A stretch of DNA of 16,327 bases, taken from a virus. The stretch's first letter is position 1. Each line of letters begins with the position of its first letter. This document shows, piece by piece, positions 4,334-16,327 of the stretch. Below the pieces are notes generated by a model. It saw only the letters and a list, made by a program, of their open reading frames with translations. It was not told the DNA's origin and did no database searches. The stretch lies in the UHGV virus genome UHGV-1577189; one strand, given 5' to 3'. The translations under genes and the position numbers were made by a program.

Positions 4334-4380
4334 TGTCGAGGCGTCCTTATACATTTATATAAATATATAATTCTATATAC

Positions 4381-4398
4381 GGCGGGAGATATCCCGCC
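4381..4398 (-). terminator. GC hairpin downstream of the 4411..5478 gene, candidate terminator
   Basis: 7-bp stem GGCGGGA/TCCCGCC with 4-nt loop, followed on the minus strand by an AU-rich tract. Confidence 0.4.
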
Positions 4399-5484: not shown

Positions 5485-5580
5485 TCTCCGGTTTAACCAG
5501 GGCGGGTATCGCTCGGTTTCGGGTATAACCTTAGGAAATTTTTTCCCACCTGTAAAGCACTTTTTATATAAATCTATAAT
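5485..5580. repeat. 96-bp promoter/leader module, copy 1 (3 mismatches to 14556..14651)
   Basis: Direct comparison of the two segments; lies immediately upstream of the start codon at 5478. Confidence 0.85.
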
Positions 5581-5647
5581 TATATATTTATAGATTTTCG
5601 ATGTTCCCGATGTCTACACACCATCAAAACAGCTCAAAATGACACTT

Positions 5648-6025
5648 TCACTCTCTTCGCTTTTTCAAATAGTCGACAACATACGCCCTGGCTTTTGCCA
5701 GCTTCCGGCGATACTGTCTGAGACTAAGAGAAAGGGCGTGGGCTTTATCAATATGCGGTGCATTTATGTCGAGGCCCCGAATCTCCCACGCCCCGTATTC
5801 AATTCGGACAACCAGCGCCGCAGTCTCATCAACTACCGTGAGGGCCGTCACAGCTCCCTCGATACTGGTTTCCAGTGAGTCATTTGGTGCGCCGCCCCCT
5901 CCGGTAAACTGGCAACGCGTAACCATCATCATTTCTAACATCGACGCGAAACCGCTACGGGCGTTGCAGCCATTGCGCACCCACAGCGCCCATAGCTCAA
6001 ACAAGCTATCCAGATCGCGTCTCAC
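5648..6025 (-). CDS. Putative antitermination protein Q-like (125 aa); identity uncertain
   Basis: GTG start with RBS GGGAG; N-terminal LFELWALW resembles the LExWGxW start of small Q proteins from memory. It is the last gene of the nin-like operon and sits directly upstream of a promoter/leader module, which is the Q position in lambdoid phages. Confidence 0.4.
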   Translation of the reverse strand: MRRDLDSLFELWALWVRNGCNARSGFASMLEMMMVTRCQFTGGGGAPNDSLETSIEGAVTALTVVDETAALVVRIEYGAWEIRGLDINAPHIDKAHALSLSLRQYRRKLAKARAYVVDYLKKRRE

Positions 6026-7998: not shown

Positions 7999-8017
7999 TT
8001 AACGAACTCCAGTTAAA

Positions 8018-8135
8018 ACCACGATATGTGGTATTAAAACCACATATCGTGAGTTTTTCAATGGGCGAAACAAAAAATAACCTTCTATTTGTGGTCCACC
8101 TCTCGTCTTACCATGTGAAAACCACTAAATGTGGT
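8018..8135. promoter_or_regulatory. Operator cluster between divergent cro-like and cI-like genes
   Basis: ACCAC-GATAT-GTGGT (8018-8032), ACCAC-ATATC-GTGAG (8039-8053, imperfect), ACCAC-TAAAT-GTGGT (8121-8135), all in A-rich context. Confidence 0.6.
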
Positions 8136-8172: not shown

Positions 8173-8829
8173 ATGAAAAGCAACGACGAGAACATCAAGA
8201 AAGAAATAGGTCTGCGCATTCAGACTCTACGGAAACAATCCGGCATGACTGCCGGAGATCTCCAGCAAGTCACTGGAATAGGCTTAAGCACCTTGCAGAA
8301 CTATGAGGCCGGATTAAGACAACCATCGATACCTGCCATCAAGAAAATCGCGCACGCCCTGAAAGCATCAGCGCCTTATATCGCGTGCTTAACAGATAAC
8401 CCGTTCCCACCCCAGAATACTAACGCTCCTGTTATTCCTGGGCTTGTAGCTATAAAAAATGACATAGCATCGCACGCCGGAGAAAAGCCAGTGCTGGCGA
8501 TAGAACAGGAGATTCTACGAAGCAAGAACATCAACCCATCGTCTCTGTCAGTTCTCCAGAGCAACGATGAGTTAATGTCACCAACAATATCCCCTGGCTC
8601 CCAAGTCCTGATTAATACAGACGATACAGAGATTCATGAGGGGATCTATGCCCTTGAAGACAGAAATGGCCTGGTTGTTTTGAGGCACTGTAGAGTCATA
8701 CCGGGTGACAATGCTGTTATGCTGTCAACCGAAAGGGATGCTGAAATGAACACTAAGCATCTGAATAACGAGGAATTTAAGCGTTATAAAGTTCTTGGCC
8801 GCGTAGTTAGTGTTGTCAACTGGTTATGA
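8173..8829 (+). CDS. CI-like phage repressor: N-terminal HTH_XRE plus C-terminal S24 (LexA-like) domain
   Basis: 218 aa; HTH LRKQSGMTAGDLQQVTGIGLSTLQNYEAG; C-terminal beta-rich domain with an Ala-Gly dipeptide (SHAGEKP) and conserved Lys (RYKVLGRVV); catalytic Ser context is atypical (ELMSP). Confidence 0.8.
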   Translation: MKSNDENIKKEIGLRIQTLRKQSGMTAGDLQQVTGIGLSTLQNYEAGLRQPSIPAIKKIAHALKASAPYIACLTDNPFPPQNTNAPVIPGLVAIKNDIASHAGEKPVLAIEQEILRSKNINPSSLSVLQSNDELMSPTISPGSQVLINTDDTEIHEGIYALEDRNGLVVLRHCRVIPGDNAVMLSTERDAEMNTKHLNNEEFKRYKVLGRVVSVVNWL

Positions 8830-8871
8830 TACACAGCACGGCGAAAGCCGTGCATTTCTACGCTCAAAAAA

Positions 8872-8886
8872 ACCACATTATGTGGT
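8872..8886. promoter_or_regulatory. Fourth ACCAC-N5-GTGGT operator (ACCAC-ATTAT-GTGGT) between the repressor gene and the next ORF
   Basis: Same palindrome family as 8018-8135; followed by TTGACA (8888-8893) and RBS AGAGG before the ATG at 8922. Confidence 0.5.
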
Positions 8887-8921
8887 TTTGACAACATGTA
8901 AAAGTATAAAAGAGGCTACGC

Positions 8922-9300: not shown

Positions 9301-9320
9301 AAGCGGGCTAACGCCCGCTT
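9301..9320 (+). terminator. Hairpin terminator candidate after the 8922..9296 gene
   Basis: 8-bp stem AAGCGGGC/GCCCGCTT with loop TAAC, followed by an A/T-rich tract. Confidence 0.4.
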
Positions 9321-9425
9321 ATATGATTATAGATTTATATAATTATATAAAACACTTTCCATCCGCCAAAAAGTTGGTTATGCTTACCTCGTTCTATAAA
9401 TATAGATTTATAGAATTATATAACC
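9321..9425. repeat. AT-rich repeat region upstream of parA (candidate centromere/operator)
   Basis: Two copies of ATAGATTTATA(T/G)AATTATATAA at 9321-9351 and 9394-9423; the same motif family recurs at 4354-4380, 5563-5597, 10099-10131 and 14634-14665. Confidence 0.5.
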
Positions 9426-9446
9426 AAACACATGGAGTCTCGACAA

Positions 9447-10100
9447 ATGACTATCTCTGTAGGTATTTTCAACGGAAAAGGCGGCGTAACCAAATCAACA
9501 ATTGCCCGTGCTTTAGCAGTTGCTTATGCAAAGGCTGGCTGGAATGTATGCCTGATCGATATGGATGTGCTTAACGGAACGGTAACGCGTTGGGTACAAC
9601 GCAGAATGGCCAACAATATCGAACCAGCAATCGCGGCGCAGCCGTGCGGCACACCATCACAAGTCCAGAAAATCATCGAATCAGAAGTATACGACCTGGT
9701 TATCGTTGATGGCGGTGCCTACGCATCTGAATCAGTACCGAAGCTATCTGAATTTCTGGATATGGTTATTTTGCCAACCCGATTCTCTACCGATGACCTG
9801 GAAACCACCGTTAACACTGCTCACGGCATCGTTAAAAAGGGTGTGCCAATCAAGAAAATTTGCATGGTGTTTTCCGGCGCGGCTGAAAATGAAGCTGACT
9901 ATATTGAAGCCCAAGAGTACCTGGCTAATACGCCATACTTTGTTGTCGATAAGTACATTCCCCACAAGCCAGCTCTGAGCAAAGCTCAGGATAAGGGCTT
10001 AAGCCTCATTGAATGCTCATACGTTGCGCCACGCAAAAAGGCAGACGACGTTATTCAGGGGATTATCAACCAGCTTGAGGCTCTGACTACTGCCGCGTAA
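9447..10100 (+). CDS. parA: ParA-family partition ATPase (small type Ib, no N-terminal HTH)
   Basis: Deviant Walker A GKGGVTKST; about 217 aa. ATG at 9447 is preferred over 9432 because GGAG lies 9 nt upstream. Confidence 0.85.
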   Translation: MTISVGIFNGKGGVTKSTIARALAVAYAKAGWNVCLIDMDVLNGTVTRWVQRRMANNIEPAIAAQPCGTPSQVQKIIESEVYDLVIVDGGAYASESVPKLSEFLDMVILPTRFSTDDLETTVNTAHGIVKKGVPIKKICMVFSGAAENEADYIEAQEYLANTPYFVVDKYIPHKPALSKAQDKGLSLIECSYVAPRKKADDVIQGIINQLEALTTAA

Positions 10101-10143
10101 TATATAATTATAGTTTTATAGATTTATATAAGAGGGGATACAC

Positions 10144-10733: not shown

Positions 10734-10792
10734 TCTTACGGTATATAAGCTACTGCAATGGTAAACAGCTATCAAATGCAGGTTGCAGTAAA

Positions 10793-10812
10793 AAAGGCCC
10801 CCGAAGGGGCCT
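10793..10812 (-). terminator. Rho-independent terminator for the small peptide gene
   Basis: Stem AGGCCCC/GGGGCCT with loop CGAA; a T-run follows on the minus strand. Confidence 0.5.
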
Positions 10813-10817
10813 AATCG

Positions 10818-10940
10818 CTACTTGCTGCTAATGTTTATCGTCACATTCAGAGCGTTATCAGTAATCTTCCAACCCTCCCCATGTGGCGTAAACAAAGCTC
10901 CAGTAACAACGATAAAAATACACATGTAGTATTTTTTCAT
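10818..10940 (-). CDS. Small hydrophobic peptide (40 aa: MKKYYMCIFIVVTGALFTPHGEGWKITDNALNVTINISSK), candidate type I toxin-like membrane peptide
   Basis: ATG at 10940 with RBS AAGGG 8 nt upstream (the track start at 11000 is TTG); Lys-rich N-terminus then a hydrophobic segment; terminator immediately downstream. Confidence 0.4.
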   Translation of the reverse strand: MKKYYMCIFIVVTGALFTPHGEGWKITDNALNVTINISSK

Positions 10941-11219
10941 TGTGTGGCCCTTACAGGCCGTTTCACGGCATCCCCACCGACGAAAATGACGCGAGAGCAA
11001 GCACGCTGTTTGTGCCTGCGTGGTACGGCAAGTGGATAATCCTTTCCTGAAAGTCAGTGCCCGGGTGCGAATCGGCGGAAAGGCCCCAAGCCATATTACA
11101 CGTCATACCCTTCATAATGAAGGAATAAAAAACGCTTTTATTACATGAGATTACACGTAAATAAGTTAAAAACCTTCATTTTGCATGAGCTAATGAGCTA
11201 AATTTTTTTATATGAATAG

Positions 11220-11429: not shown

Positions 11430-11528
11430 CCATTGGTGGACACTTTCCGAGCCGTAGCAAAATCTACGGTCGGGATTGGAACCCCGATAATCATCATGGC
11501 GCATACCGCGTTAGCGGTTTTTTTATGC
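11430..11528 (+). ncRNA. Candidate c4-like antisense RNA of an immI-type antirepressor module
   Basis: Three consecutive hairpins (CCGTAG/CTACGG; TCGGG-ATTGGAA-CCCGA; ACCGC-GTTA-GCGGT plus T7) upstream of a small ORF and ant; the loop GATTGGAACC recurs in the leader hairpin loop at 11638-11647. Confidence 0.35.
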
Positions 11529-11689
11529 GTAAAGCACTGCTACACCCAAATTATGGTGGGGCGTGCGGGGGAGTCGTAAGACTCGCCGGATTCCATGGTG
11601 ACCGGTAGTTCCAACCCTGTACGTCTCACCACCCAATGATTGGAACCAGACGGTGGTGAGTATCCTTAACCTTTAAGGGAACTATCACC

Positions 11690-11881
11690 ATGACAAACTT
11701 ACCCCATGACTATTACGTCAACCTCGTAAAGATCCTTCTCAAGAAAGCCTCATACGCCGATAAATTCCGCCTGGCTGAAATCATCGAGCGCGAAGCTATG
11801 CGCATCGCCAGCAACGATAACGCTGTTTCTGACGCAAAAATCTCCCTCGTAACCAAAGTAGTTATGGGAGGTGCAAAATGA
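11690..11881 (+). CDS. Small ORF (63 aa) translationally coupled to ant (icd-like position)
   Basis: RBS TAAGGGA; its stop overlaps the ant ATG (ATGA at 11878-11881); preceded by a 9-bp-stem leader hairpin at 11625-11662. Confidence 0.45.
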   Translation: MTNLPHDYYVNLVKILLKKASYADKFRLAEIIEREAMRIASNDNAVSDAKISLVTKVVMGGAK

Positions 11882-13023
11882 AAACGCTTCCGACCGTTAA
11901 CACCCTACAGCCTATCCTGCATAACCAAATCCCTGTCATTACTACCGAGTTACTAGCACAGCTTTACGGCACTGAGCCGGTGCGTATTCGCCAGAATCAT
12001 CATGAGAACAAAGCACGTTTCGTTGAAGGGAAACACTTTTTCAAAGTTGTTGGTAATGACCTTAAAGAATTGCGGGTAGCTTTAAACTACTCTCAAAATC
12101 CAGTTTCACCTAAAGTCCGCTCCCTCATCCTCTGGACAGAACGCGGGGCTGCACGTCACGCTAAAATGCTCGAAACCGATCAGGCGTGGGATGTATTCGA
12201 ACGGCTGGAAGACTGCTACTTCAACCAGAACGCGCAAACGGCCGCGACCGTAACCGTCTCACCAAACAATGCTCGTGAGGTTGTCGATACGCTCAACGCT
12301 AAACCAATGTATTACATTAAGGTGTGCAACAACGAGCCACTCACAACCTCAGCCGATGTTGCCCAGGCATTCAGCACCACAAACAATTCCATCGTTATGG
12401 CCATCGATGCGTTACGCATTCCTCGCACAGCTGCGGCGCGTCACTTCTTTAAAGAGCAACGACCGCTGGAAGGAAGCGACCGCGAAATAACAATCTATCG
12501 CATGACAAAAGACGGATTTACCTTGCTCATGGAGAGCATCGACGGTCCAAGCGTGAAAGATATCAAGCTGGCCTACATTGAAGCCTTTAACGCTATCAGC
12601 AGCGTGTTAAAAACACAGTACGAGCGTGATCTGGCTAAACGACTATACCAGGAAAAAACGATTATCCGCGCGGCAACAGAGCATAATCGGCTATTAACGG
12701 AACCGAACTACAGGAAGGAACTAATCAAGGAGTTTGACAAGGCAACAGGGAAAACCAAAGCGGCGCTAAGTCTGCCAGCAATGACTCAGGAAAATGTGAT
12801 ATCAGCCTTACTTCTTGATCTGCTCAGAAACGCCAGAGCACTTATCAGCTTTGACGAAAACCTGAATCCTCAGCTCAAGCTACTACCACCGACAGGCAAA
12901 GTAGTCGACCAAGCAGAACACAACAGCATACTCAGCGTACTGGATGCAAACCTGCCAGCCAGGACACTACAGGATCTGATAAAAACATGTGCTGATAAGC
13001 TGGCACAGAAAAGCAGACCATAA
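11878..13023 (+). CDS. ant: Phage antirepressor Ant
   Basis: 381 aa; N-terminal ITTELLAQLYGTEPVRIRQNHHENKARFVEGKHFFKVVGNDLKEL and SLILWTERGAARHAKMLETDQAWDVFERLEDCYF match the antirepressor N-terminal domain; RBS GGGAGG. Confidence 0.8.
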   Translation: MKTLPTVNTLQPILHNQIPVITTELLAQLYGTEPVRIRQNHHENKARFVEGKHFFKVVGNDLKELRVALNYSQNPVSPKVRSLILWTERGAARHAKMLETDQAWDVFERLEDCYFNQNAQTAATVTVSPNNAREVVDTLNAKPMYYIKVCNNEPLTTSADVAQAFSTTNNSIVMAIDALRIPRTAAARHFFKEQRPLEGSDREITIYRMTKDGFTLLMESIDGPSVKDIKLAYIEAFNAISSVLKTQYERDLAKRLYQEKTIIRAATEHNRLLTEPNYRKELIKEFDKATGKTKAALSLPAMTQENVISALLLDLLRNARALISFDENLNPQLKLLPPTGKVVDQAEHNSILSVLDANLPARTLQDLIKTCADKLAQKSRP

Positions 13024-13060: not shown

Positions 13061-13762
13061 ATCAACACCAGAGACTTTCTGAAAATCCTTTCGAATAGCG
13101 TCAGCGTCACGCGCCAAGCCCATACTCGAACGTGTCGCCATATGACGAAAATGATCAACTGCCGGAAACAAAGAAATAATGGACCCAATAGCTTGCAGCA
13201 AACTCGCTTTTCTACGCATCATAATTCCACCATAACCGATAGCCACCCTTCAGACACAACCCCCCCTCCCCCCATACAGGGTGCCCTTTACCGGAGTTCC
13301 GGCCCCTTCTCAAAAGCATCAAAAAAAGCTCGAGATCGAGTACCGGAACTCATGCCACCAGATAGCTCCACATCGTTTCCAATGCTTCGCCGCCGTGTGC
13401 GCCCTGTGGCCCACAATCATGCCATTGGTCGTCTGATATACCTTCTTCTGCTCATTGAGCACAGGCGAGTTGTCGCACTCCTGCCTTTCTCAGACTCGAC
13501 TTAGTTTAGATCGCTGTTCCTAGCTTGCGTCAGCACACTTTCCCCTTGTACGCATACCCGCGCGCCACTCCGCCCAAAAACACCGAACCCAACGAAGTGG
13601 CAAAGACAACGACGCGAGCGTGAGTCTGAAACAGGCACCAGTAAAAAAGGGGTTGCAGGCGCAAAAAGATTTGATTATCTTTAGACGCAAGAAAGCCGCC
13701 CCAATCAAGAGGTGTCTTTTTAAATCCAGCCTACCAAGCAAGATTTAAATTTCAGACTGAAA

Positions 13763-13790
13763 ACCGCCCGGCAAGGCGGTTTTTGTCTTT
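13763..13790. terminator. Bidirectional rho-independent terminator
   Basis: Stem ACCGCC/GGCGGT with loop CGGCAA; TTTTTG on the plus side and a T4 run on the minus side; lies downstream of the minus-strand HTH gene. Confidence 0.55.
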
Positions 13791-13832
13791 CTGGCGCTTA
13801 CATTACACCACCATAAAACGATCCGTAAAGGA

Positions 13833-14105
13833 TCATTTGATCCCTTGTTCCAATTCTGACGACACTTTAACCTTTTCCCATACAAGGGTTTGCAGCCTTA
13901 ACAGAATCGCATCTTTATCAAGGTGTGAAAGATCCTTAACCATATCGTCAAACGACAGAACGCGAATGGCCATCTCAATGACCCTCGGCGGCTCCCCCTT
14001 CTCATATCGCTTATATGTAGCCAACGATATCCCAAATTCTTCGGCGGCTCGCTCCTGCGTCCAGTTCATCCCACGACGCCATAATTTCAATTCATAACCC
14101 GTCAT
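13833..14105 (-). CDS. XRE-family HTH transcriptional regulator (about 90 aa)
   Basis: ATG at 14105 with strong RBS GAGGAGG; HTH WTQERAAEEFGISLATYKRYEKG; an 11-bp-arm palindrome lies immediately upstream. Confidence 0.7.
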   Translation of the reverse strand: MTGYELKLWRRGMNWTQERAAEEFGISLATYKRYEKGEPPRVIEMAIRVLSFDDMVKDLSHLDKDAILLRLQTLVWEKVKVSSELEQGIK

Positions 14106-14134
14106 AGCATCCTCCTCGCACAATATTAACACTC

Positions 14135-14159
14135 GCAAAGTGTCAAAATGACACTTTGC
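14135..14159. promoter_or_regulatory. Perfect 11-bp-arm inverted repeat GCAAAGTGTCA-AAA-TGACACTTTGC (operator/terminator candidate)
   Basis: Sits between the stop of the 14169..14549 gene and the RBS of the HTH regulator; a 14-nt half-site copy occurs at 5635-5648. Confidence 0.55.
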
Positions 14160-14168
14160 GCATTGTGT

Positions 14169-14549
14169 TTACTTAACGAGGAATAAAAATGGTTTATTGT
14201 TCGGCGGTGTAATCGGGGCTGGCTCGCTTTTGCTCATGCGATCAGTGTACCAGGCCAGCTCCTTGTCAAAGTAAGCCTGATTAAAATAGGCCATGAATGT
14301 AGTTTCAAATCCATAACGACCGCTAATACGCAGCATCTGATTGCCGTTCTCTGTTTCCAGATATACCTGGGCACGTTCCTGATTCTCCTTCAGCCAGGTT
14401 AAAGCCTCATCGCACGAGGACACACGGTACTCATCATCGTAGCCGTCATCGATGCGGCTTGAAGAAGAACGGCAAATCACGCCAACAGAACCAGCCAGGA
14501 TAGTTTGAATTTTAAGGAAAGCATTTTTGCGGATTTTAATCATGCTCAT
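14169..14549 (-). CDS. Hypothetical protein (126 aa) driven by the duplicated promoter/leader module
   Basis: ATG with RBS GGAGA in the conserved leader; no family recognised. Confidence 0.6.
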   Translation of the reverse strand: MSMIKIRKNAFLKIQTILAGSVGVICRSSSSRIDDGYDDEYRVSSCDEALTWLKENQERAQVYLETENGNQMLRISGRYGFETTFMAYFNQAYFDKELAWYTDRMSKSEPAPITPPNNKPFLFLVK

Positions 14550-14555
14550 CGGGTT

Positions 14556-14651
14556 ATCTCCGGTTTAACCAGGGCGGGTATCGCTCGGTTTCGGTTATAA
14601 CCTTAGGAAATTTTTTCCCACCTGTAAAGCATTTTTTATATAAATATATAA
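14556..14651. repeat. 96-bp promoter/leader module, copy 2 (3 mismatches to 5485..5580)
   Basis: Direct comparison of the two segments; immediately upstream of the start codon at 14549. Confidence 0.85.
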
Positions 14652-14672
14652 TTATATAATTCTATGAGCACA

Positions 14673-14695
14673 AAAAAGCCCCTTTGCAACAGGGG
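14673..14695 (-). terminator. Terminator candidate after the HigBA-like operon
   Basis: Stem AAGCCCC/GGGGCTT flanked by A6 on the plus strand, i.e. a T6 run following the stem on the minus strand. Confidence 0.5.
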
Positions 14696-14712
14696 CTTAT
14701 CATTCGTTCTGA

Positions 14713-15012
14713 TCAGATGTTAAACGCTATTCGTTTTCCTGTGGGAAGCTCAACATCCAGGCTTAATTTGCCTCCCATAGCTTCAACGTAACGCTTTAAT
14801 GTCGCCAGCTTTAAATCATTTCCGCGCTGCTCCAGCTTTGTTACTGCTGGCTGGCTTATACCCATCGCCTCAGCAACCTGTTTTTGTGATAACTGGAGTT
14901 CTTCACGCATCATCTGCAAGCCGACCTCAAGAATCATCTCATCTGCCATTTCTTTAATTCGCGCCTGGCTTTCAGGTGAACGGCTGGCAATCACCTCATC
15001 TAATGTTCTCAT
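14713..15012 (-). CDS. higA: HigA-like HTH antitoxin (addiction module antidote)
   Basis: 99 aa; HTH LSQKQVAEAMGISQPAVTKLEQRGN; directly downstream of and overlapping a RelE/HigB-like toxin gene. Confidence 0.7.
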   Translation of the reverse strand: MRTLDEVIASRSPESQARIKEMADEMILEVGLQMMREELQLSQKQVAEAMGISQPAVTKLEQRGNDLKLATLKRYVEAMGGKLSLDVELPTGKRIAFNI

Positions 15013-15365
15013 TACTTGCTCTCCAGTGTGTTCAGATGTGCTGCAAACTCATCCTCAGCTATACGCACCAGTTTTTCATAAAACCGTTTATCGTTACTTT
15101 TGTCTCCTGCACAAAGAACGATGGCCCGGCGAATCGGATCGAACGCATAAAAGGCTCTTATCGGACGGCCAGAAAACTGAACGCGAAGCTCTTTCATATT
15201 TTTGTACCGAGAACCTTTTACGGTATCGGCATATGGCCTGGGTAACTCAGGTCCGTAAACCTGTAGCTTTTTCAAATCAGCCAAAACCTTTTCCTGAAGA
15301 GCGTCTTCTTGCTCATTTAGCCAGTCGTCAAATCGCTGGCTAAAAAGTACCGTCCACATGCTCAA
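15012..15365 (-). CDS. higB: HigB/RelE-family toxin (addiction module killer protein)
   Basis: 117 aa; motifs LRVQFSGRPIRAFYAF and IVLCAGDKSNDKRFYEK match the killer-protein family; toxin-first gene order is typical of HigBA. Confidence 0.7.
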   Translation of the reverse strand: MSMWTVLFSQRFDDWLNEQEDALQEKVLADLKKLQVYGPELPRPYADTVKGSRYKNMKELRVQFSGRPIRAFYAFDPIRRAIVLCAGDKSNDKRFYEKLVRIAEDEFAAHLNTLESK

Positions 15366-16272: not shown

Positions 16273-16327
16273 GTCTAATAGGAAACGATGTTTCTTACGT
16301 TTTATCGCGTTCTGATGGCTACTGTGT
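16273..16327. repeat. Terminal overlap copy 2 (identical to 50..104)
   Basis: Exact 55-nt match to the start of the biological sequence. Confidence 0.85.

Follow-up and report, generated by a model that had tools for sequence, protein, structure and literature searches.

A perfect palindrome in front of hth, a gene encoding a 90-aa helix-turn-helix (HTH) protein of the XRE family, is probably the operator of this protein and would serve its negative autoregulation. In the mechanism we propose, hth would have its own promoter with an extended -10 element in addition to the read-through from a leader promoter further upstream. A dimer of the hth product bound to the palindrome would block access of RNA polymerase to the hth promoter and might, in addition, impede the read-through, and the regulator would thus be held at a set level. 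The main argument for this reading is that the same site accompanies the gene in unrelated genetic surroundings.

The analysed stretch of DNA (16,327 nt, the window) represents the replication, maintenance and early region of a family of phage-plasmids of about 48 kb, which possess a contractile tail and an IncFII-type RepA. Relatives with 97-99% identity are many E. coli plasmids, including the 48.5-kb plasmid of ATCC 25922, as well as the Yersinia phages vB_YpM_39, 41 and 44; no paper was found on phage vB_YpM_39. Diverged phage-plasmid relatives occur in Salmonella, Klebsiella aerogenes, Yokenella and Citrobacter. The name pSLy3 was rejected for this group of about 48 kb, as pSLy3 belongs to the SSU5 supergroup of about 100 kb. 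Positions 1-49 of the window are an Illumina Nextera adapter (...GTCTCGTGGGCTCGGAGATGTGTATAAGAGACAG). Positions 50-104 are identical to the last 55 nt (16273-16327), and therefore the contig closes to a circle of 16,223 bp. Thereby, repA/invertase are joined directly to ead and the early region, and the circle is devoid of all lysis and structural genes found in the 48-kb relatives. Either a deletion has produced a mini-plasmid, or the circle is an artefact of the assembly.

All genes of the operon around the palindrome are located on the minus strand, in the order AT-rich repeat and leader promoter, 126-aa gene, palindrome, hth and terminator (Table 1). The promoter/leader unit is present in two copies in the window and in three copies in the complete plasmids (the third e.g. 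at 32529-32648 of L087). No family or fold match, toxin families included, and no known anti-defence match was found for the 126-aa protein. By its distribution described below, the 126-aa gene is variable cargo and not an obligate partner of hth. A HigB/HigA-type pair adjoins at 14713-15365. The AT-rich repeat, TATAAATnTATAATTATATA, was detected in six copies (4347-4381, 5564-5598, 9319-9353, 9392-9426, 10100-10134 and 14636-14670). Copies immediately precede the -35 of the duplicated leader promoters, and parA is flanked by copies as well. This repeat, and not the palindrome, is the common element of the leader units; it is probably a site of a global repressor or a partition protein.

Table 1. 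Features of the hth region and of the second locus in the window.
Feature	Position	Strand	Basis or remark
Putative operator of hth (O_hth)	14134..14160	.	Sequence, simulations, same motif at hth homologues and in 6 diverged phage-plasmid lineages
Family core AAGTG-N9-CACTT	14138-14156		Within O_hth
hth, 90-aa XRE-family HTH protein	13833..14105	-	Pfam HTH_3, HTH_31, phrog_6962
Shine-Dalgarno sequence GAGGAGG of hth	14111..14117	-	From sequence
Predicted extended -10 TGtTAATAT of the hth promoter	14123..14131	-	Conservation in 7 lineages
126-aa gene	14169..14549	-	phrog_8090, no other annotation
Promoter/leader unit driving the 126-aa gene	14557..14664	-	Other window copy at 5485-5592, 95% identity
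G+C-rich stem-loop with T-runs, ends the operon after hth	13758..13785	.	Terminator-like, 9-bp arms
Isolated 15-nt copy of one operator half and centre	5634..5648	.	Statistics, no partner arm, relatives

An earlier note on this DNA had described the palindrome as GCAAAGTGTCA-AAA-TGACACTTTGC at 14135-14159 and had placed it between the 126-aa gene and the ribosome-binding site of the HTH gene. We found it exactly there, with the stop codon of the 126-aa gene on one side and the GAGGAGG sequence of hth on the other. The full perfect palindrome extends one base further on each side (CGCAAAGTGTCA-AAA-TGACACTTTGCG) and has 12-bp arms. This exceeds chance, because arms of at least 12 bp were reached in only 1 of 100 second-order Markov simulations of the window. 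Further long palindromes of the window are located at 1545-1570 and 8020-8051. In a scan, the window, the complete 48.5-kb relative and two Salmonella relatives each contained one full operator and no further one.

For the comparison with homologues, 34 loci of Enterobacterales encoding homologues with 40-66% identity were retrieved on the basis of an alignment of 23 homologues of the hth product. They comprise plasmids and chromosomal or genomic islands with unrelated neighbouring genes. The sequence AAGTG-N9-CACTT or a close variant was detected upstream of 31 of the 34 homologous genes, typically 12-35 nt before the start codon. In its strict form, the motif occurred 34 times in the upstream windows of 130 nt compared to 5 times in about 157 kb of flanking sequence. 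In plasmids of Providencia and Serratia the site is situated 19 nt before the ATG and there is no co-directional gene upstream, for which reason it has to be assigned to hth and not to the 126-aa gene. Phage-plasmid lineages with a 70-76% identical HTH protein lead to the same result. The upstream gene has been swapped or lost in these lineages, so that hth is preceded by the 126-aa gene, by a HicB-like gene together with a 146-aa gene, or directly by a HigB/HigA-type pair. All of them have nevertheless kept GTGTCA-N3-TGAyACTTT, which therefore is a property of the regulator gene. A two-fold symmetric site next to its own gene is thus conserved across contexts, at 31/34 homologues and in 7/7 phage-plasmid lineages, and the proposal of the earlier note that the palindrome is a regulator site tied to the adjacent XRE gene gains support from these unrelated surroundings. 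The 126-aa gene itself is absent beside hth in the phage-plasmids of Citrobacter and Yokenella and in all island and plasmid homologues.

Nine of the loci (L013, L014, L022, L028 and L035-L039) carry a second AAGTG-N9-CACTT about 57 bp upstream of the first, i.e. at about -90 from the HTH start codon. The window does not contain such a second site. Its presence points to cooperative binding in these island-borne members, or else to a divergent promoter being controlled there.

The hth product contains a helix-turn-helix domain of the Cro/C1 type according to Pfam (HTH_3 with 29.8 bits, cut-off 23, E 6e-7; HTH_31 with 27.6 bits, cut-off 27) and to its predicted structure, which has the five-helix layout of XRE proteins (pLDDT 81). 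The best NCBIfam match, the RstR family HTH, was below threshold, and so was the MqsA HTH. In profile searches against the PDB only weak matches were obtained, to MqsA (E 0.0025), Aca2 (E 0.0045) and HipB, and the top Foldseek matches were generic XRE structures, all with E above 0.1. The homologues form 44 protein clusters with an invariant N-terminus MTGxELxLWR. Nothing points to a role of the hth product as immunity repressor, since the element has a separate CI-like repressor with other operators.

The promoter of hth was deduced from the phage-plasmid comparison. At a fixed spacing from the palindrome, TG-TA---T is invariant in 7/7 aligned lineages, and the surrounding bases diverge. This corresponds to an extended -10 element (TGnTAnnnT) which begins 5 nt past the TTT of the conserved core and 3 nt past the full palindrome. 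It reads TGtTAATAT in the window (14131-14123) and TGaTAAAAT or TGtTAAAAT in relatives. A generic sigma-70 -35/-10 scan did not reveal a promoter in 13650-14750, hence it is the conservation on which the promoter call is based. A canonical -35/-10 promoter with TTGACA inside the palindrome was rejected, as the spacer to TAATAT would be only 12 nt and none was detected by the scan. Transcription of hth would start near 14116. With the -10 just past the palindrome, the operator would consequently extend over about -44 to -18, i.e. the -35/spacer region. In the islands, the homologues have a TAnAAT hexamer immediately next to the operator, on its upstream side, a geometry that would place the site over the transcription start. 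Both geometries, that of the phage-plasmids and that of the islands, therefore predict autorepression. We assume in this model that the hth product binds the palindrome as a dimer, that the hth promoter is active and that the effect of binding is repression.

Some relatives (L064, L075 and six listed plasmids) contain a 575-bp cassette whose insertion point lies exactly behind the -10 hexamer and which separates the operator from the ribosome-binding site of hth. It occupies 974-1547 of L075 and 1508-2082 of L064, the insertion point corresponding to 14115-14122 of the window. The cassette carries an antisense ORF of 141 aa with a hydrophobic N-terminus, for which no Pfam or PADLOC match was obtained. 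That the insertion leaves operator and -10 together counts for autorepression. Against it counts that the regulator gene of these variants is about 600 bp away from its own operator. The predicted 5' UTR of hth, only about 11 nt long, also speaks against this reading, and so does the palindromy itself, which is longer than expected for the binding of a dimer whose recognition helix has not changed, and which shows compensatory changes in its outer bases.

The excess palindromy together with these compensatory changes is a hint of selection on a hairpin. The palindrome might mainly act at the RNA level, as a 12-bp hairpin in read-through transcripts from the leader promoter. Such a hairpin could end or stabilise the mRNA of the 126-aa gene, or it could be the top of a longer stem hiding the ribosome-binding site of hth until ribosomes finish the 126-aa gene (translational coupling). 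The 96-nt read-through RNA indeed folds at -34.8 kcal/mol (z = -5.4 compared to shuffles), and in the minimum-free-energy fold the Shine-Dalgarno sequence of hth (CGAGGAG) is paired with the final codons of the 126-aa gene (UUCCUCG). A similar sequestering fold was obtained for the two K. aerogenes versions, but not for the versions of Salmonella, Yokenella and Citrobacter. The outer arm bases differ between the lineages and are still complementary (CGC/GCG, ATGCTC/GAGCAT, GTGG/CCAC). The outer pairs covary, with changes on both sides in 3 pairs and with pairing in 91% of cells, and the one mismatch in Salmonella is a G.U pair on the sense strand. Beyond the core, palindromy amounts to 2.6 bp on average compared to 0.99 when flanks are re-paired between loci, and the observed value was reached in 0/2000 shuffles, although the recognition helix is identical. 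Template switching at quasi-palindromes could, however, keep the arms matched without selection, and the covariation is compatible with selection on a hairpin as well as with such neutral homogenisation. Moreover, the inner arm positions are asymmetric in many island homologues, and the motif also occurs at homologous genes without any gene in front from which transcription could continue into them. Transcripts of hth that start from the conserved -10 would not contain the hairpin. The gene strand also lacks a U-tract, and an intrinsic terminator on this strand was rejected because the stem is followed on the minus strand by AGUGUUAAUAUUGUG; a terminator-type site at the palindrome was flagged on the plus strand only, antisense to both genes. 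Rfam yielded no match in 13950-14350 even at E up to 5. Taken together, a mainly RNA-level function is unlikely.

Alternatively it might be that the palindrome has a double duty, as hth operator in the DNA and as translation-gating hairpin in the read-through mRNA. The HTH regulators Aca1 and Aca2 recognise one inverted repeat both in the DNA and, once transcribed, as an RNA stem-loop, and their RNA motifs are also found between genes inside operons (PMC13551039). In a similar way, the hairpin could be used by the HTH protein or by the ribosome traffic from the upstream gene. We consider this combination, including its Aca-like use of the hairpin, quite improbable. If true, it would explain why the lineage-specific outer bases remain complementary despite the unchanged recognition helix, and a new XRE subfamily, located on phage-plasmids of enterobacteria, would join the HTH proteins that exert control through both RNA and DNA.

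The 126-aa gene and hth could also form a toxin-antitoxin (TA)-like pair with the toxin first, as in higBA and mqsRA; the palindrome would then be the antitoxin operator at an internal antitoxin promoter. The pair resembles higBA of Rts1 in gene order and internal promoter, and the nearest relatives of the HTH domain in sequence and structure are the antitoxin domains of MqsA, HipB and HigA2. This explanation is nevertheless very improbable. Neither by family nor by fold does the 126-aa protein match a toxin, hth does without the 126-aa gene in the phage-plasmids of Citrobacter and Yokenella and in all island and plasmid homologues, the operator is not at the operon promoter, and next to hth there is no obligate toxin gene whose family could be recognised. 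Scarcely probable at all is that another protein, such as the CI-like repressor, a HigA-like antitoxin or a host factor, binds the site and that its adjacency to hth is incidental. The element does encode at least 4 HTH proteins besides the 90-aa hth product, but the site accompanies hth homologues in plasmids and islands without those proteins, and the CI-like repressor (8173-8829) has a repeated palindrome of its own. This palindrome, AACCAC-N6-GTGGTT, is distinct from that of hth.

Copies of AAAACCAC-N6-GTGGTTTT recur at 1613-1637, 8015-8056 and 8869-8889 of the window. Two of them abut in the gap that separates the CI-like repressor gene from the divergent early operon, one is located downstream of this gene and one just upstream of repA. 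They are likely operators of the CI-like repressor, which would tie replication to immunity. Above the gathering score, Rfam matches were obtained for ryfA (10790-11088, minus strand), isrK (11451-11524, plus strand) and the C4 antisense RNA (11549-11636, plus strand). The latter two are located just upstream of a 63-aa ORF (11690-11881) and an ORF6N/Rha antirepressor gene (11878-13023). This group represents an immI module of the P1/P7 type (c4-icd-ant).

The earlier note had furthermore reported an exact 14-nt copy of one half of the palindrome at 5635-5648 and had proposed that the regulator links the two duplicated leader units. The copy is real and comprises 15 nt (TCAAAATGACACTTT, 5634-5648, corresponding to 14143-14157). 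It overlaps the TGA stop codon (5648-5650) of a 125-aa gene (5648-6025, minus strand). For this gene the label 'Q-like' had been used and could not be confirmed, as no Pfam match to a Q antiterminator family was obtained; there is a full-length, sub-threshold NCBIfam match to PA0613_fam (E 2.5e-4, 21 bits compared to a cut-off of 100). The statement that such a repeat is unlikely by chance applies to this particular palindrome, for which a recurrence of at least 14 nt was observed in 4 of 2000 simulations. Exact repeats of this size are, however, more frequent in the window than expected, with six sporadic ones of 14-15 nt compared to 1.3, which makes the match less exceptional than claimed.

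Binding of the HTH protein to this copy, coupling the two leader units, is extremely improbable. In its favour are the rarity of the match for this palindrome and its invariance in 10 near-identical E. coli-type contigs; the latter is uninformative, because these contigs are about 99% identical overall. Against it, the copy represents a half-site only, since the left arm is missing (AACAGCTCA instead of the necessary AAAGTGTCA). It lies 42 nt outside the duplicated leader (5485-5592) and about 95 nt upstream of the leader -35. Neither this half-site nor anything similar is present at the third leader copy of the complete plasmids. In the relatives from Salmonella and Yokenella (three Salmonella plasmids and the Yokenella-type contig L070), the 125-aa gene and the DUF3560 leader are separated by an intact ORF of 147 aa (26287-26730 of L006). 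Window positions 5600-5655 align to pieces of this ORF as its collapsed remnant. The homologous position inside the ORF reads AAAGGCTCA, AAAGGTGCA or AAAAGCTCA, and the homologous stretch is AAAGGCTCATTTTGAGCT, AAAGGTGCATTTTGAGCT or AAAAGCTCATTTTGAGCT in these relatives compared to AAAGTGTCATTTTGAGCT in the window. Thereby the GTG core is lost, and the same relatives still keep the operator at hth. A bindable second operator, with both half-sites, at the other promoter and conserved, is not present. The 15-nt copy is probably non-functional, either a relic of coding sequence resembling one half-site or a chance match. The proposed regulatory link between duplicated early promoters of the phage-plasmid is thus unsupported and can be removed.

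Through autoregulation at the palindrome, a small regulator family that lacks annotation and is frequent on phage-plasmids, plasmids and genomic islands of enterobacteria would acquire a cis-element as well as a probable function, namely to limit its own expression. With AAGTG-N9-CACTT a searchable operator motif is gained, of which we know no earlier description. The understanding of such regulators in general is unchanged.

In context tests the hth product was rejected as an established Aca member, as a controller of a restriction-modification (R-M) system and as a TA antitoxin, and it shares features with each of these groups. The XRE antitoxins of type II systems (MqsA, HigA, HipB) are the nearest relatives of its HTH domain and autoregulate through palindromes. 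Unlike in these systems, no toxin partner of hth can be recognised, the gene in the partner position varies or is missing, and the operator lies inside the operon. With Aca1 and Aca2, hth has in common that a mobile element carries a short operon in which the small HTH gene comes last, preceded by a small gene that is variable and lacks annotation, and that an inverted repeat able to form a stable RNA hairpin is situated near the ribosome-binding site. The profile similarity to Aca2 (7ezy_A, E 0.0045, residues 1-68; N-terminus MTxYEL) is weak, and the Foldseek match (E 0.21, TM 0.37) is at the level of the general XRE fold. In contrast to Aca2, the repeat of hth lies between the genes, and none was found at the leader promoter or in the operon 5' UTR, the location of Aca2 repeats upstream of an acr gene. 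Furthermore, the upstream gene has no anti-defence annotation, Rfam gives no match and most hth homologues are monocistronic.

The controller (C) proteins of R-M systems are XRE proteins of about 80-90 aa, too, with a palindromic 'C-box' just upstream of their own gene. Their transcripts are sometimes leaderless or have a short leader, and two sites about 57 bp apart are found at many hth homologues. They differ from hth in that no R-M genes adjoin it in the window or the sampled loci, in the motif, and in the fold, C.Esp1396I being only a weak match to the hth product. To the Cro/CI-type XRE repressors (Cro and CI of lambda and 434, RstR of CTX-phi) the hth product is similar as a small HTH_3 protein with its best NCBIfam match, sub-threshold, in the RstR family, and by its site, which has two-fold symmetry, spans about two helical turns and is predicted to overlap the promoter of hth. 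Unlike in these systems, there is a single operator instead of a tripartite OR, no divergent lytic promoter is present at hth, and there is no sign of hth encoding the immunity repressor, the element having a separate CI-like repressor and a P1-type c4/ant module. The hth product is a generic XRE protein that would act like an autoregulator of the Cro/CI or C-protein type, and the palindrome is most likely an ordinary autoregulatory operator of an uncharacterised XRE subfamily.
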